Shown here piece by piece: positions 31,508 to 44,668 of a stretch of 64,000 bases of DNA. Under the pieces are notes generated by a model. That model worked only from the letters and a program-made list of their open reading frames with translations. It searched no databases and was not told the DNA's origin. The first letter of the stretch is position 1. Each line of letters begins with the position of its first letter. Both the position numbers and the translations under genes were made by a program. The DNA is from Escherichia phage vB_Eco_F27, in sequence record OP870146.1; one strand, written 5' to 3'.

Positions 31508-31816
31508 TCAATTAGAAAATAAATTTATCCAAGATTTTTCTTTAATCAAAAATGGGTCGGAATTAAACGCCATTAAACTTTGAGTGATTAATCCCTTAAA
31601 TGGCCCATCAATAAATTCCATTTTGAAATGTGGAATACTAGTCATCAACCGTGCATTAGGAGCAGTACAAAGAACATGCTGCCCTGCGAACGGACCTTTA
31701 GTTAAACGATATCGTTTAGGTTTAAAATGGTAAATCTCGTAATTTTCTACAAGAGCCCTTTTATTGCATACTGGGCTGTTATAACAATACTCAAAAACTT
31801 CAATAGTGGTCATCAT
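31508..31816 (-). CDS. hypothetical protein
   Basis: 102-aa ORF. Confidence 0.6.
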   Translation of the reverse strand: MMTTIEVFEYCYNSPVCNKRALVENYEIYHFKPKRYRLTKGPFAGQHVLCTAPNARLMTSIPHFKMEFIDGPFKGLITQSLMAFNSDPFLIKEKSWINLFSN

Positions 31817-32352
31817 TGCATTCCAATCACAAAAAATTGAGGACGAGCATTACCGCCGATGCAATATTTGCTTTTGCAGCAGTGCTGTACTGTTTTAATG
31901 TGGACATTGTAAATCTTATCCATATCAGGAGCTTTAATAGGCTCGTCAATTATATACAGAATACGAGAAAGCGTTAATCCACGGAATTTAGAACCTTCAT
32001 TGCCAATAAAACTACGAACAGAATCAGTAAATAAACGGAATCGAATATCATCGCTAGAATAACGAGAAAATTCTTTTTTAATGTTGCCAGCAGAAATTTT
32101 AGCATAAGCTGAAGTATTAGAAAGAACAATAACTGTTCCACCATCATATAGCCAATTAACAGCAAAATTAGTTACTGCGGACGATTTACCTGATTGTCTG
32201 CCGCCGTCTAAACGAAGTGTACAGTACTGCTTGAGTACGTCTTCAAATGGTGGGGCATAACCGTTCTTACAAATTTCTTCTACTCTAGCATCAGAATGGT
32301 GTGTAAAAGCATTCATCAGGGATAGATAAGGTCCAGTTAAAAATGTTCTCAT
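31813..32352 (-). CDS. P-loop NTPase
   Basis: 179 aa. Walker A GGRQSGKSS, Walker B LYIIDEP. Confidence 0.65.
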   Translation of the reverse strand: MRTFLTGPYLSLMNAFTHHSDARVEEICKNGYAPPFEDVLKQYCTLRLDGGRQSGKSSAVTNFAVNWLYDGGTVIVLSNTSAYAKISAGNIKKEFSRYSSDDIRFRLFTDSVRSFIGNEGSKFRGLTLSRILYIIDEPIKAPDMDKIYNVHIKTVQHCCKSKYCIGGNARPQFFVIGMQ

Positions 32353-32433
32353 TTAGTTTCTCTTTTAGGTTGGGCCATTCCGTGGCGCATGAATTGTCCA
32401 TTTCTGTATTTACCCCTCCAAGTAATTATGAAT

Positions 32434-32462
32434 ATACTATCACAATTCTAGGAGATGTAAAC
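32434..32462 (-). promoter_or_regulatory. early promoter
   Basis: Minus strand: GTTTAC, 17 nt, TAGTAT. The -35 abuts the stop of the upstream internal-protein gene. Confidence 0.55.
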
Positions 32463-32861
32463 TTATTTGTAGGTTTTCATCCAATTCTTGAACAAAGCCG
32501 CGACGTCTTTCTCTTTAACGTTCAGTTTAATGTCCAACATTTTACCGCCCGCTGCTCTCGTTTGACGAATCTTAGCAGTACCGGTTTCACCATTCCACTC
32601 AACATAATATTGCCCAGTGTTCATAGCGATACCGTTGCCAAAGTCTTCGTTATTAGAAGTAGTGAATGCCAACTTCATGGTCTTAGAGACACGGGCCGGC
32701 ATGCCTGTCTGAAGGGCATTACGAACGCGAATAACCTGAGGAGTGGCCTGGGTCAGGTTCTCATTCAGTTCTTCGGTGAACTCTTCAGATTCAAACATCG
32801 CCAAAAGTTCTTTAGATGCAGGAATTACATTCTCTGCGATAAATTCTTTATATGTTTTCAT
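32463..32861 (-). CDS. capsid-targeted internal protein (IP-A)
   Basis: The N-terminus MKTYKEFIAE-N is the T4 capsid targeting sequence, with an I-x-E prohead-protease site at residue 10. Sits in the ipII/ipIII neighbourhood next to e. Confidence 0.75.
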   Translation of the reverse strand: MKTYKEFIAENVIPASKELLAMFESEEFTEELNENLTQATPQVIRVRNALQTGMPARVSKTMKLAFTTSNNEDFGNGIAMNTGQYYVEWNGETGTAKIRQTRAAGGKMLDIKLNVKEKDVAALFKNWMKTYK

Positions 32862-32892
32862 TTTTTGTTTCCTTGTTTGTTTTGATAGAGTA

Positions 32893-32922
32893 ATTATACC
32901 ATATTAATACTTAAGCGTAAAC
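32893..32922 (-). promoter_or_regulatory. early promoter
   Basis: Minus strand: GTTTAC, 18 nt, TATAAT. Confidence 0.6.
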
Positions 32923-32925
32923 CGT

Positions 32926-33186
32926 TTAAGCTTTACCGCCAGAAATAATTCCGAAGTTGTTAAAATCGTATCCAATATCGTCAACATCTACTTTAGGACT
33001 TACTACAACATAAGCAATTTCACTACGTTTTGCATAGGTGTTTATTTCTTTACCATCACCACCTAAGAAAGAATACCCATTACGTTTTAATGAGCCAAAG
33101 TCTTCCGCATCACCAATGAAAGCTTTAACTTTAAATTTAGGACCTTTGGCATCTGCTTCAACGATAAATTCTTGATACATTTTCAT
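32926..33186 (-). CDS. capsid-targeted internal protein (IP-B)
   Basis: N-terminus MKMYQEFIVE-A (CTS plus I-x-E site). 86 aa. Confidence 0.7.
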   Translation of the reverse strand: MKMYQEFIVEADAKGPKFKVKAFIGDAEDFGSLKRNGYSFLGGDGKEINTYAKRSEIAYVVVSPKVDVDDIGYDFNNFGIISGGKA

Positions 33187-33192
33187 TTTTCC

Positions 33193-33303
33193 TTAGTAAA
33201 TTGATTTACCATAGTATTTGTACCAAGTCGGACGTTGAGCAATTTTTTCATCTAAGCGTGCTTGATTTATCGCAATGGACGCTTCGGACGGGTCATAATT
33301 TCC
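33193..33303 (-). pseudogene. denV: denV (endonuclease V, pyrimidine-dimer glycosylase) 3' remnant
   Basis: The translated tail [36 protein letters not shown] matches the C-terminus of T4 endonuclease V ([37 protein letters not shown]). The upstream ~100 codons are missing and no in-frame ATG remains. A promoter cassette abuts the break. Confidence 0.8.
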
Positions 33304-33323
33304 TCCAAGTAGTTGATGAATGT

Positions 33324-33353
33324 ATAGTATCAAAACCCTTGGAGGAAGTAAAC
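33324..33353 (-). promoter_or_regulatory. early promoter cassette at the denV breakpoint
   Basis: Minus strand: GTTTAC, 18 nt, TACTAT. The spacer TTCCTCCAAG (rc of 33338..33347) is complementary to CTTGGAGGAA (rc of 33300..33309). Confidence 0.6.
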
Positions 33354-33355
33354 AA

Positions 33356-33637
33356 CTATTTTTCTGAAGCGCCTGAAATATATTTTTCAAGACGTTGTTT
33401 CATTAAAGAGCCGTTCTTAGCGATTTCTTCCGGTTTATCGCACATACGCAACAAGGCTTCGAGCTTAACGATATCGCTGGTACGTTCAAATTTGCGAGTA
33501 TCTATCTTACTAGCAAGTTCAGAAATACGTGCTAATAGACTTTCGGCTTCAACCAAAGCTGCACCTAGCTTAGTTGCAAATGTGTCAGTAGCTTCGTTAA
33601 GAATAGATTCTGATAAAAATTCACTATATGTTTTCAT
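33356..33637 (-). CDS. capsid-targeted internal protein (IP-C)
   Basis: From the ATG at 33637 (ATGA overlap with the e stop) the N-terminus is [11 protein letters not shown] (CTS plus L-x-E site). 93 aa. Confidence 0.7.
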
Positions 33638-34122
33638 ATATACGCTTTCCAAGTTCCTGTTTTAAATGTTGAGATTACGCGTTTCGCGCGATTAGGTGTC
33701 TGACGATACCATTTAGATTGGGCTAGATTTACTGCCGCTTCGTCCCAACGTTTCTGTTGAAGCATACGAAGAGAATTAGTAAAACCGGCAACGCCTGCTA
33801 CGCCCATTTGGAAGACCATATTGACCAATGCACATCGACGAACAGCATCTAAAGAATCATATACCGGTTTAAGTTTAGCATTACCCAAGATTCCGCGAAC
33901 GGCTTTATCAACGTCTTCATTAAATAGCTTTTCAGCCTCATCAAGGGTAATTGTACCGTTGCATTTACGACCGATCATTCTGTCAAGTTCAGCTTTAGCT
34001 ACGGCTAAAGAAGGGTTCTTTGTTACTAAATGGCCTATGCCAATCGTCCAAAAGCCTTCAGTGTCTTTGTATAAAGTCAGTCTAAGACCTTCGTCATTAC
34101 GAAGCATTTCAAATATATTCAT
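33634..34122 (-). CDS. e: lysozyme (endolysin) e
   Basis: [32 protein letters not shown]...[56 protein letters not shown] is near-identical to T4 lysozyme. 162 aa. Confidence 0.95.
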
Positions 34123-34150
34123 AATACCTCCCACGTTTATAGGAGGTATT
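34123..34150 (-). promoter_or_regulatory. SD-sequestering hairpin of gene e
   Basis: Minus-strand AAUACCUCC-UAUAAACGUG-GGAGGUAUU lies immediately before the e ATG. The 9-bp stem buries the SD, and a late-promoter-like TATAAAC sits in the loop. T4 controls e translation this way. Confidence 0.7.
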
Positions 34151-34156
34151 TATTAC

Positions 34157-34612
34157 TTATAGGAGGGTAGTGAGCACCTTATATAATGATTTGCCCATTA
34201 CATATTCCCATTGAGAAGGTTTAATTAAAGCGAATGCATCAAATTCAGGAATCTGACGTCCGTCTGGGAATGTATGATAGGAATTACAAACACTGTTTCT
34301 GAATTGCTCGTGCTCTACAGGGATGGTATATAGGAACAGATGAATATTCTTATTGTCTGAGTAATGATGTTCACCTAGGTCTTTCAGGAAGGCAGGGTCA
34401 TATTGTGTAAACCCAGTTTCTTCTTCGCATTCACGAATAGCGGCTTCAATAGGAGATTCGCCAGGTTCGACACGGCCTTTAGGAATATCCCACCGATGAG
34501 CTAATGCACCTTTAGGACGAGAACCAGTTACACGGCCCATGAATAATTCTTTATCTTTTGTCATGAAGATAATACCAGCGGACAACTCTTTCACTTTATT
34601 TTTCTTACTCAT
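34157..34612 (-). CDS. nudE: Nudix hydrolase NudE (e.1)
   Basis: Nudix box GRVEPGESPIEAAIRECEEETG. 151 aa from the second ATG, adjacent to e as in T4. Confidence 0.88.
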   Translation of the reverse strand: MSKKNKVKELSAGIIFMTKDKELFMGRVTGSRPKGALAHRWDIPKGRVEPGESPIEAAIRECEEETGFTQYDPAFLKDLGEHHYSDNKNIHLFLYTIPVEHEQFRNSVCNSYHTFPDGRQIPEFDAFALIKPSQWEYVMGKSLYKVLTTLL

Positions 34613-34841
34613 CATCTCGGTCCCATGATTTGGCCATTAATTCGGACATAAATTCTTCAATGCGCGTTTCTTTAGATGGACTTTCACTATTAGAGACCGC
34701 AAGTTTGTAATCTGCAATAGGACAGAACATATCAAGGTCCATATTAAGGTCGTCTTTGATTTTTTCTTCTGACACATCTTTATCGTATGTGTACAGATAA
34801 CTATCACATGATTCTGATTTAATGTAAATTGCTATACTCAT
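34605..34841 (-). CDS. hypothetical acidic protein
   Basis: The ATG at 34841 (MSIAIYIKSE) has AGGAA 8 nt upstream. That SD is encoded within the ..ECRN.. tail of the upstream gene. Confidence 0.55.
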   Translation of the reverse strand: MSIAIYIKSESCDSYLYTYDKDVSEEKIKDDLNMDLDMFCPIADYKLAVSNSESPSKETRIEEFMSELMAKSWDRDDE

Positions 34842-44031: not shown

Positions 44032-44295
44032 TTATTTCAAATATATTGCGTATTTTTTATAGCCACCAGGCTCGTGTCGAAGACCTTTATCATTCGCAAA
44101 ACGTTGAATGTTATTGAACTGATTTTCATCAAGTTCGGATGTGTCAAATATGAAAAAGTTTCGTTTGTTGCCAAGCGTGATATGCGGAGTTAAGTCAATG
44201 TTATACAAATTAAGAATATCAGCAATAACCTGATTGACCGCTTTGTTAATTTTCACACCAGACGATTCTGAGATGAATTCGTTGAAAGTTTTCAT
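44032..44295 (-). CDS. capsid-targeted internal protein (IP-E)
   Basis: From the ATG at 44295 the N-terminus is MKTFNEFISE-S (CTS plus I-x-E site). 87 aa. Sits at the ipI locus next to 57B. Confidence 0.65.
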   Translation of the reverse strand: MKTFNEFISESSGVKINKAVNQVIADILNLYNIDLTPHITLGNKRNFFIFDTSELDENQFNNIQRFANDKGLRHEPGGYKKYAIYLK

Positions 44296-44327
44296 TTTAG
44301 GTTCCATTTGGTTGTTTTGATAGGACT

Positions 44328-44357
44328 ACTATAACATAATCCTATCGTGTTGTAAAT
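44328..44357 (-). promoter_or_regulatory. early promoter cassette (PeSL type)
   Basis: Minus strand: ATTTAC, 18 nt, TATAGT. Inverted repeat GATAGGATTA/TAGTCCTATC. Confidence 0.6.
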
Positions 44358-44668
44358 TATTTTATGCCTTTAGAAGAAATGGTGTTTTGGCGTTTGGTCC
44401 CTGTTTGTGAAAAATCGTGGTTATCGATTTGGTCGACTCGCATAACACCAAATGCAGATTTAATTTTAGCCTTTGAACCTTTTTTGATACTAATTATCAT
44501 ATAAGTATCATTTTTCTTATATTCGAAATTTGTTACTTCAACGCCTTGATTAGAAATTGACTTAATAATAGCATTAGCGTATTCATCATCTAACGGACCG
44601 GTGGTGTTAATAATAAAATTTTTATCGGCTTTAGTAGCTTCAGCGATAAACTCTTGATAAGTTTTCAT
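44357..44668 (-). CDS. capsid-targeted internal protein (IP-F, ipI position)
   Basis: From the ATG at 44668 the N-terminus is MKTYQEFIAE-A, the canonical T4 CTS. 103 aa. The longer track ORF runs through the promoter. Confidence 0.7.
   Translation of the reverse strand: MKTYQEFIAEATKADKNFIINTTGPLDDEYANAIIKSISNQGVEVTNFEYKKNDTYMIISIKKGSKAKIKSAFGVMRVDQIDNHDFSQTGTKRQNTISSKGIK

Follow-up and report, generated by a model that had tools for sequence, protein, structure and literature searches.

What are the three small genes that follow the lysozyme gene in Escherichia phage vB_Eco_F27, and what might their products do? They lie in a stretch of 64,000 nucleotides of sequence record OP870146.1, referred to here as the window, which belongs to a genome of the Mosigvirus (RB69-like) type. 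The original prediction, made from the letters of the DNA, had them encode three different capsid-targeted internal proteins (IPs) with novel bodies, which would be candidates for injected anti-defence effectors. The underlying observation was confirmed and its interpretation was partly supported, but the novelty of the bodies was not. It is considered quite probable that the three genes, designated A, B and C in the order in which they follow gene e, are three cassettes of the hypervariable internal-protein locus of T-even phages, which extends from gene e to the vs genes, and that they encode likely anti-restriction proteins swapped by recombination. The features of the locus, and of a second IP locus in the same window, are collected in Table 1.

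Table 1. Features of the two IP loci in the window (↓, predicted cleavage by the prohead protease).
Feature	Position	Strand	Description
Linker after C	32390..32462	-	Early promoter GTTTAC, 17 nt, TAGTAT, in stem-loop; fold -8.8 kcal/mol, z = -3.0
ipC (C)	32463..32861	-	132-aa IP precursor, leader MKTYKEFIAE↓N; matches phrog_15461 'unknown function'
B-C linker	32862..32925	-	Early promoter TTTACG, 17 nt, TATAAT, with TG; promoter scan 10/12
ipB (B)	32926..33186	-	86-aa IP precursor, leader MKMYQEFIVE↓A; matches phrog_2667 'internal head protein' and phrog_35655
denV remnant	33193..33296	-	Endonuclease V; aligned with the intact 137-aa denV of mogra and with that of JM17, which has the same deletion
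Linker after A	33297..33355	-	T4 early-promoter-like GTTTAC, 18 nt, TACTAT, in stem-loop TTCCTCCAAG...CTTGGAGGAA
ipA (A)	33356..33637	-	93-aa IP precursor, ten-residue leader ↓S; RB69 ORF127c family
Gene e	33634..34122	-	T4-type lysozyme/endolysin, ORF MNIFEMLR...; orthologues annotated lysozyme or endolysin in JM17, HMD-9 and T4
Second IP locus	44032..44668	-	Downstream of 57B; two further leader-bearing genes, D and E
E	44032-44295	-	87 aa, leader MKTFNEFISE; matches phrog_7673 'internal head protein'
D	44357-44668	-	103 aa, leader MKTYQEFIAE; matches phrog_2667 'internal head protein'

The three predicted ORFs are all present, on the minus strand, and each begins with a T4-type capsid-targeting leader that carries [IL]-x-E at residue 10. 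In T4, the leader of both IPII and IPIII is MKTYQEFIAE. Residues 1–7 are MKTYSEF in A, MKMYQEF in B and MKTYKEF in C, and the deviations from the T4 consensus are T3M in B and I8L and A9S in A. Mutagenesis has shown that Y4 and F7 govern targeting, that positions 8 and 10 are critical for processing, and that the propeptide comprises 10–19 residues with the site at its end (PMC9026906). Both targeting residues are kept in A, B and C, and the L/I-x-E motif of the prohead protease gp21 is present as L8-S-E10 in A, I8-V-E10 in B and I8-A-E10 in C, which indicates putative sites from the presence of the motif. A second L-x-E site occurs in A (L13-N-E15, followed by A) and in C (L32-N-E34, followed by N), so that cleavage after residue 10 may be one of two possible events in these proteins, the other being after E15 or E34. 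Translated in six frames, the window contains five matches to the motif MK.[YF].[ED]F[ILVM].E, against none in 200 shuffles. All five matches are starts of minus-strand ORFs, three at the e locus and two in the second IP locus. Within each family, the leader is conserved even where the bodies fall to 32–50% identity. By these features, A, B and C have the sequence characteristics of T4-type capsid-targeted internal proteins.

The adjoining lysozyme gene, also part of the prediction, is the orthologue of T4 e, and its TGA stop overlaps the ATG of A (ATGA). The gene order in the window is nudE, e, A, denV remnant, B, C and a vs.8-like gene, and the succession nudE-e-IPs-(denV)-vs agrees with that of T4. 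The three genes are sited in the canonical e-denV IP locus, downstream of e. As had been stated, T4 has ipIII and ipII at the same position. With D and E, the phage has five IPs in total, none of which is an orthologue of IPI, IPII or IPIII. A dead remnant of denV, which the prediction had not mentioned, lies between A and B. Its start codon is kept and is followed by a 310-bp out-of-frame deletion between AATTATG microhomologies, which leaves the coding sequence for only the last ~35 residues; judged from its sequence, the remnant is non-functional.

The content of the locus was compared among relatives. The order after e is IPIII, IPII, denV in T4; A, denV, B, IPIII, IPII in mogra; A, denV, B, IPII in LF82-1; A, dead denV, B, IPII in JM17; A, denV, B, C, IPIII in HMD-9; A, dead denV, B, C in the window; IPIII, C, denV, D-like in JS98; and C, IPII, denV, IPIII, D-like in Klebsiella phage R3_1. 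Phages whose flanks have about 97% identity thus differ in the IP cassettes that they carry, and the order A-B-C pre-exists in HMD-9. As described in PMC2839356, the hyperplastic IP locus of Repoila et al. (1994) holds leader-bearing ORFs that vary in number, order and identity and lie between conserved early-promoter blocks, which were proposed to drive recombinational shuffling within and between both loci; the same paper gives more than 30 IP variants according to Comeau (2007). The conserved leader on diverse defence-related bodies was published in 1994, 2008 and 2010 (PMC3012670, PMC2839356). The window is the same phenomenon as the polymorphic T-even IP loci, with no difference in kind; it adds to them base-level crossovers for the exchange of IPII for C, and the Mosigvirus-specific series A, dead denV, B, C.

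Downstream of the leader, the bodies of A, B and C are mutually unrelated, as had been claimed: BLASTP of the leader-stripped proteins gave no match and all hhalign probabilities were below 3%. The prediction had named as its own refutation the case that the bodies are simply diverged IPII and IPIII. The position occupied by A, B and C, which is that of ipIII and ipII, speaks for such an origin, but the mature regions have no similarity to T4 IPI, IPII or IPIII in BLASTP (none better than E = 0.7) or in profile comparison by hhalign (at most 2.7%), and their lengths differ. True IPII and IPIII orthologues are 85–97% identical across Tequatrovirus, Mosigvirus, Dhakavirus and Klebsiella phages, and real IPII or IPIII coexist with A, B or C in mogra, HMD-9, JS98 and R3_1. 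That A, B and C are orthologues of IPII or IPIII whose bodies have diverged strongly is given a probability of next to nil. For IPI*, a GmrSD inhibitor, an NMR structure has been solved. No sequence match to A, B or C was found in the PDB, and nothing significant in Pfam or NCBIfam. A PADLOC match of C to JukA (14 bits, E = 0.007) was treated as noise. AlphaFold2 models computed from the family alignments of C and B have mean pLDDT values of 40 and 50 and are unreliable. The three genes are under purifying selection, with dN/dS of 0–0.15 (about 0 for A against HMD-9, 0.15 for B and 0.07–0.10 for C).

The novelty claimed for the bodies did not hold. The A family is that of RB69 ORF127c and is found in 496 phage records, that of B in 217 and that of C in 49; A and B are often annotated as internal head protein already, with which their RefSeq and UniRef names agree. 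A clusters at 90% identity with RB69 ORF127c (RefSeq NP_861817.1, 'internal head protein [RB69]') and matches phrog_3499 'internal head protein' with E = 1e-46. Its mature body is ~8.6–9.2 kDa and net neutral. A relative of A with 47% identity and a propeptide of 15 residues occurs in the 57B-ipI locus of a Tequatrovirus, that is in the other IP locus, which indicates movement between loci. The mature body of B has 76 residues (about 8.1 kDa), is net neutral and is predicted to be β-rich. The B family, often named internal head protein, is spread over Mosigvirus, VR7/SP18-like and S16-like phages (~200 records). In the annotation of some relatives the second Met is used as the start; the first ATG, which yields MKMYQ, is supported by other members of the family that read MKTYQ, MKTYP or MKTYE. 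Kinship of B and D, suggested by their common match to phrog_2667, was rejected, as neither leader-stripped BLASTP nor hhalign shows any similarity. In the absence of similarity between these bodies, the match to phrog_2667 is either driven by the leader or due to a heterogeneous cluster.

C is identical to protein F27_0121 of phage vB_Eco_F27. It consists of the leader, an acidic helical segment (residues 11–34) that ends at the second site, and a conserved basic core of ~98 residues; trimmed at E34, it would have a pI of 10.1. Members of the family are found in JS98-like, Klebsiella, Erwinia and Serratia phages, and distant leader-bearing relatives adjoin e in Erwinia and Serratia phages. 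As all 49 records carry the annotation 'hypothetical protein', the reading as an IP from leader and locus adds to annotation; among A, B and C, it is C alone that has lacked the IP label to date. Apart from three large proteins, a sensitive profile search with the C family returned short phage relatives alone. These three were rejected as compositional noise, since Pfam identifies them as unrelated β-repeat proteins (Por-secretion, β-propeller and Listeria-Bacteroides repeats). The C-terminal MKTYK of C was considered as a fossil leader and rejected: the homologue of Erwinia phage Cronus ends in ...SWLK before the stop, and others have MKTHK, MKVHK and the like. It is probably a coincidence.

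The slot of C is that of IPII in close relatives. Aligned with JM17, the window is identical to about nucleotide 27 of the leader, then wholly divergent through the body, and the two sequences rejoin at GTTTAC right after the stop codon. This comparison shows IPII replaced by C, with crossovers inside the leader and at the downstream early-promoter block. The downstream crossover point is the linker after C, of which T4 has a near-identical counterpart upstream of ipIII. In JM17, the linker between B and C recurs unchanged ahead of IPII.

T4 early promoters (GTTTAC/TATAAT-like) flank the genes after A, between B and C, and after C. Significant stem-loops were found by DNA folding in three of the six linker blocks, namely after A (-10.2 kcal/mol, z = -5.2), after C (z = -3.0) and upstream of D (z = -2.1); in the B-C, D-E and after-E linkers, a stem-loop is absent or non-significant. 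In the B-C linker, where folding gave no significant stem-loop, the promoter is followed by a CTATCAAAACAAACAAGGAAAC leader region, a motif common to the regions upstream of D and E. The canonical late promoter TATAAATA was not found in the IP locus, and late expression of A, B and C would rest on degenerate e promoters or on early transcripts. As T4 ipIII and ipII also have no late promoter of their own, its absence says little. The arrangement partly resembles the PeSL cassettes of RB49 and phi1 (promoter-early plus stem-loop mobile regulatory cassettes; Arbiol et al. 2010, PMC2839356), in which small accessory ORFs are likewise bounded by recombination linkers with a promoter, there combined with a stem-loop. 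However, PeSLs have a sigma-70 consensus and polyG/polyC stems, whereas T4-type early promoters (GTTTAC as -35) and AT-rich stems are found here, and the 5' crossover lies inside the coding leader, unlike in PeSLs. Arbiol et al. termed the elements of the IP locus analogues, not homologues, of PeSLs (PMC2839356).

At the same locus of a distant, metagenomic T4-like contig, a single ORF consists of one leader, a B-like body and a C-like body, with a putative protease site L-T-E↓S between the two bodies. This possible polyprotein suggests a multi-effector precursor. A functional link between B and C was also considered from the fusion and is unsupported by co-occurrence, as the two families overlap in HMD-9 alone among the records listed. 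It is possible, although we hold it only tentatively, that C (phrog_15461) is an unrecognised injected IP directed against a still-uncharacterised modification-dependent nuclease, and that the design of leader and L-x-E sites delivers more than one effector per precursor.

In T4, targeting by the capsid-targeting sequence (CTS), cleavage by gp21, injection, and inhibition of GmrSD by Ip1–3 are established. By analogy, we infer that A, B and C are packaged, cleaved and injected and that they have an anti-restriction target. Through its short N-terminal CTS, in which targeting would depend mainly on Y4 and F7, each precursor would be docked on the scaffolding core while the prohead assembles. 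Cleavage by gp21 after the Glu of L/I-x-E would follow, at E10 and possibly also at E15 (in A) and E34 (in C). Once released, the bodies would remain in the head with the DNA, probably in tens to hundreds of copies, and would be injected ahead of the genome or along with it. Injection with the genome would allow A, B and C to work ahead of all phage gene expression. Each body would most likely serve to block, by binding, a single host nuclease directed against sugar-modified phage DNA, for example a Type IV enzyme of the GmrSD type. While T4 DNA contains glucosyl-hmC, the DNA of this phage probably contains arabinosyl-5-hydroxycytosine, as judged from its genus, since arabinosylated 5-hydroxycytosine is found in RB69-type phages (PMC13326640). 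The nucleases relevant to Mosigvirus would be those that recognise arabinosylated cytosine derivatives, and the target of C in this genus could be such a nuclease. On this reading, the repertoire changes by swaps of whole cassettes through homologous recombination and not by point mutation, with the upstream crossover in the conserved leader and the downstream one in the early-promoter linker blocks, with or without a stem-loop.

The anti-defence idea of the prediction accords with the literature, in which Ip1, Ip2 and Ip3 are inhibitors of three different GmrSD enzymes and the same role is proposed for all proteins of both Ip loci (Silas et al. 2025, PMC12373910). The T4 IPI/IPII/IPIII (Ip1–3) and the proteins described here share the leader, the L/I-x-E site, the loci (e-denV and 57B-tRNA), the small size and the early-promoter flanks. 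However, the T4 IPs are basic while A and B are net neutral, which makes a different behaviour inside the head possible. A, B and C are also unrelated in sequence to the GmrSD inhibitors Ip1–3 taken as models. No virion proteomics for the three families was found in a literature search.

Other functions can be proposed for the same proteins. They may be packaged and injected, and yet have a target other than Type IV restriction, such as Type I/III restriction-modification, BREX, RecBCD-like nucleases, abortive-infection sensors or host takeover functions. As the bodies are unlike IPI, IPII and IPIII, there is no sequence basis for the same class of target. Another protein packaged by T4 is Alt, an ADP-ribosyltransferase acting on host proteins (PMC9026906), and in a scan of IMG/VR for the leader, which returned at least 110 distinct ORFs, the leader was found on at least about 50 unrelated clusters of bodies, reaching 600 residues in some. 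On the other hand, every IP of known target (Ip1, Ip2 and Ip3) inhibits an enzyme of the GmrSD type (PMC12373910), A, B and C gave no match to an enzymatic domain, and their small size of 8–14 kDa fits stoichiometric inhibitors, so that a target outside Type IV restriction is rather unlikely.

A mainly structural role, in head assembly, DNA condensation or charge balance and with no action on the host, would agree with the slower head assembly and lower burst size upon loss of T4 IPIII (PMC9026906), with the contacts of IP lysines with DNA phosphates (PMC3012670) and with the strongly basic character of C cut at E34. It is nevertheless improbable, as mature A and B carry no net charge, T4 can do without its IPs on laboratory strains (PMC9026906), and cassettes that vary among ~97% identical phages form the pattern of an accessory arms race and not that of structural parts. 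The leader could also be a vestige carried along by recombination, one or more of the three being unpackaged cytoplasmic early proteins. The early promoters directly upstream of C and of B (the latter via the denV remnant), the absence of a canonical late promoter, and the substitutions in the leaders of A and B point in this direction. Yet A, B and C retain all the residues on which targeting and processing critically depend, the leader has been kept in each family while the bodies diverged, and T4 ipII and ipIII have the same promoter layout. A vestigial leader is accordingly given very little credence, and packaged anti-restriction proteins encoded by exchangeable cassettes are the preferred reading.

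The conceptual gain is small, as the literature and the databases already contained the idea, the locus and the families of A and B. What is new here is the mapped replacement of IPII by C, the dead denV and the contig with the leader-B-C fusion. In practice, the annotation of the C family can be changed to internal protein, and a replacement of one cassette by another between genera, mediated by leader and promoter, is documented at base level. The targeting tag is also seen to be flexible from the possible two-body polyprotein, a property relevant to the engineering of T4-based protein delivery. The IP locus is a catalogue of small proteins delivered ahead of phage gene expression. As conserved and constrained orphans in a genus with arabinosylated DNA, A, B and C are reasonable probes for host nucleases that sense arabinosylation.

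The window phage is T4-like and belongs to Mosigvirus (RB69 group); over the region 31800-34700 it shares about 97.6% identity with mogra, JM17, LF82-1 and other phages. Every gene of the region is carried by the minus strand. As originally predicted, three open reading frames next to the lysozyme gene e, termed A, B and C, begin with the T4 capsid-targeting sequence (CTS, the leader), the ATG of A overlapping the TGA stop of e. When the window was translated in all six frames, the leader motif turned up five times, versus none in 200 shuffles, so that its occurrence is beyond chance. All five are starts of open reading frames on one strand: A, B and C, and two further genes, D and E, at the position occupied by ipI in T4. 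D is 43% identical to JS98 orf112. The dN/dS values against orthologues (0.07-0.10 for C, 0.15 for B and about 0 for A) indicate that A, B and C are real genes. Five internal-protein (IP) candidates are encoded within the window, none of them orthologous to T4 IPI, IPII or IPIII.

Genes of the two internal-protein loci of the window and their neighbors
Feature	Coordinates	Strand	Length	Remarks
nudE	34157-34615	-		first in transcription order
lysozyme gene e	33634-34122	-		second, after nudE
A	33356-33637	-	93 aa	3' of e
denV remnant	33193-33296	-		between A and B
B	32926-33186	-	86 aa	starts MKMYQEFIVE
C	32463-32861	-	132 aa	starts MKTYKEFIAE
vs.8-like gene		-		after C in transcription order
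D	44357-44668	-	103 aa	MKTYQEFIAE; just downstream of 57B
E	44032-44295	-	87 aa	MKTFNEFISE; just downstream of 57B

Mutagenesis of IPIII has assigned CTS residues 4 and 7 to targeting, and residues 8 and 10 to processing at the L/I-x-E motif of the prohead protease gp21; propeptides are 10-19 residues long (PMC9026906). With Y4, F7, I/L8 and E10 kept in all three proteins, the initial reading of A, B and C as capsid-targeted internal proteins is sound, and they are very probably genuine CTS-directed head proteins. A second candidate gp21 site is present in A (L-N-E|A, residue 15). It aligns with the I-T-E|S that ends the propeptide of a 47%-identical Tequatrovirus relative in Escherichia phage KarlGJung/Bas37 (L009 1771-2028; one low-identity record examined), in which the body, meaning the part that follows the leader, is joined to a 15-residue propeptide of the IPI type (MKTFKEFATKTTITE|S). 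By this comparison, A of the window may undergo maturation at E15 (SILNE|A), either in place of E10 or in addition to it. As the relative lies in the 57B-ipI locus, shuffling of the A family between the two IP loci is also suggested. In C, a second candidate site (L-N-E|N, residue 34) ends an acidic helical segment that is missing in the homologue of Erwinia phage Cronus and shortened to 'AEELNE|N' in another relative. Trimming at E34 would raise the calculated pI of C from 8.9 to 10.1. The mature forms of A and B have no net charge, whereas T4 IPI*, IPII* and IPIII* have pI values of 9.0-9.7.

The C-terminus of C (...NWMKTYK*, 32463-32480) repeats the first five residues of the leader, with ATGAAAACCTACAAATAA in the DNA versus ATGAAAACATATAAAGAA in the leader. 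This ending is conserved as MK[TSIV][YH]K in phages of E. coli and Klebsiella. It was considered as a fossil leader and is probably a coincidence, the Cronus homologue ending in ...SWLK*.

Once stripped of their leaders, A, B and C displayed no BLASTP similarity to one another or to T4 IPI, IPII and IPIII, and profile-profile comparison of the bodies gave a probability below 3% for every pair. The three bodies are mutually unrelated, as was proposed. The alternative named by the original prediction, that they are no more than diverged forms of IPII and IPIII, is excluded by these negative comparisons and by the existence of true IPII/IPIII orthologues, which keep 85-97% identity in four genera and occur alongside A, B or C within the same genomes. 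The proposed novelty of the bodies did not hold, as the families of A and B already bear the name internal head protein. The body of A is found in 496 phage records, which fall into a close set of 238 (identity of at least 90%) and a distant set of 258 (about 47%); it clusters with RB69 ORF127c (RefSeq 'internal head protein') and matches phrog_3499. That of B is found in 217 records, often under the name 'internal head protein'. That of C is found in only 49, with identities of 92-97% in JS98-like Dhakaviruses, about 84% in Klebsiella phages and about 50% in Serratia and Erwinia phages. All contexts examined place C inside the e-denV IP locus; it is always annotated 'hypothetical protein' (phrog_15461, 'unknown function'); its exact match is WBF80418.1, 'hypothetical protein F27_0121', of Escherichia phage vB_Eco_F27 (168,845 bp). 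Among the records listed, the distributions of B and C overlap only in HMD-9, and the two are not linked in general.

Order of genes following e in the phages compared
Phage	Order after e
T4	IPIII, IPII, denV
mogra	A, denV, B, IPIII, IPII
LF82-1	A, denV, B, IPII
JM17	A, dead denV, B, IPII
HMD-9	A, denV, B, C, IPIII
Window	A, dead denV, B, C
JS98	IPIII, C, denV, D-like
Klebsiella R3_1	C, IPII, denV, IPIII, D-like

The order A, B, C pre-exists in the published genome of HMD-9. When the window is compared with JM17, identity runs through the intergenic block upstream and on into the leader for about 27 nt, the bodies diverge completely (C versus IPII), and the match resumes at GTTTAC directly after the stop codon. 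The DNA of the C body is 88.5% identical to that of JS98 and 93.5% to that of HMD-9, A and B being 97-98% identical to HMD-9. Judged from these alignments, this is an inter-genus cassette replacement that maps to the leader and promoter block. The linker blocks are T4-type early promoters, and the CCTATCAAAACAA... leader region is common to those of both IP loci. The block 3' of C is nearly identical to that upstream of T4 ipIII, and significant stem-loops were predicted in three of the six blocks. An architecture of conserved leader and ~70-bp blocks with an early promoter, proposed to mediate shuffling both inside each IP locus and from one to the other, is attributed to Repoila et al. 1994 (PMC2839356). 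The window locus has the same architecture. Arbiol et al. 2010 regarded IP-locus blocks as analogues of PeSL cassettes, and noted more than 30 known IP variants (PMC2839356).

The denV gene (endonuclease V, UV repair) is dead, with a 310-bp out-of-frame deletion between AATTATG microhomologies that spares the start codon and the codons of the last ~35 residues. The deletion is identical in JM17, and denV is intact in mogra, LF82-1 and HMD-9. The window phage is expected to be UV-sensitive unless another denV copy is present outside the window. Upstream of e, T4 has two canonical late promoters, TATAAATA. At the corresponding spots of the window (~34123-34170, minus strand) are the degenerate sites AATAAATA and TATAAACG; the exact TATAAATA is absent from the coding strand over 32300-34700.

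A profile search yielded P0029, a single open reading frame of 194 aa on a distant T4-like metagenomic contig (L131 4041-4625, Logan SRR14654591_561). It occupies the equivalent position, overlapping the stop of e with its start and preceding denV. A leader-like MKSFDQYIME|S is followed by a B-like body (32% identity, E=8e-13), then by a C-like one (49% identity, E=3e-30). The [LI]-x-E motif occurs just twice, at residue 10 and at residue 98 (L-T-E|S), the B/C boundary. The junction is cleanly in frame, the two alternative frames being closed by stops, and shows no sign of a frameshift. On this single contig, P0029 is possibly a polyprotein, in which one leader would deliver two bodies separated by gp21. 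Beyond the window, IMG/VR was scanned for the leader coding sequence ATGAAAACNTAYNNNGARTTYATHNNNGAR, which was found in at least 120 stretches (L010-L129), many on environmental contigs, although some matches may be due to chance or stem from non-T4-like phages. At least 110 distinct leader-bearing open reading frames of 52-610 aa were recovered, with at least about 50 unrelated body clusters. The pool of bodies carried by the leader may be larger than the literature count.

The locus is a classic, well-documented hyperplastic locus, and its finding here is a re-discovery. The additions made here are modest: members of the C family are recognizable as internal proteins, one cassette exchange between genera has been mapped, and a two-body precursor is possible.

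No significant match to A, B or C was found in Pfam, NCBIfam or PDB sequences, and a PADLOC match of 14 bits was treated as noise. The AlphaFold2 models of C and B are unreliable (mean pLDDT of 40 and 50). With the C family as query, a sensitive profile search brought up short relatives from phages and some beta-repeat noise, and nothing else. Since the searches provided neither fold nor target, function is approached by analogy. IPI* inhibits GmrSD, and Silas et al. 2025 showed that Ip2 blocks one GmrSD variant and Ip3 another, without cross-protection; these authors proposed that every protein of the two Ip loci targets variants of GmrSD systems (PMC12373910). By this analogy, the chances are about even that each of A, B and C is an inhibitor of a modification-dependent nuclease. 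Action on other early host targets is rather unlikely, and a mainly structural role is very improbable. The DNA of RB69-type phages contains arabinosylated 5-hydroxycytosine, not glucosyl-hmC (PMC13326640). The nucleases encountered by Mosigvirus internal proteins may therefore differ from those encountered by T4, a point inferred for the window phage from its genus.
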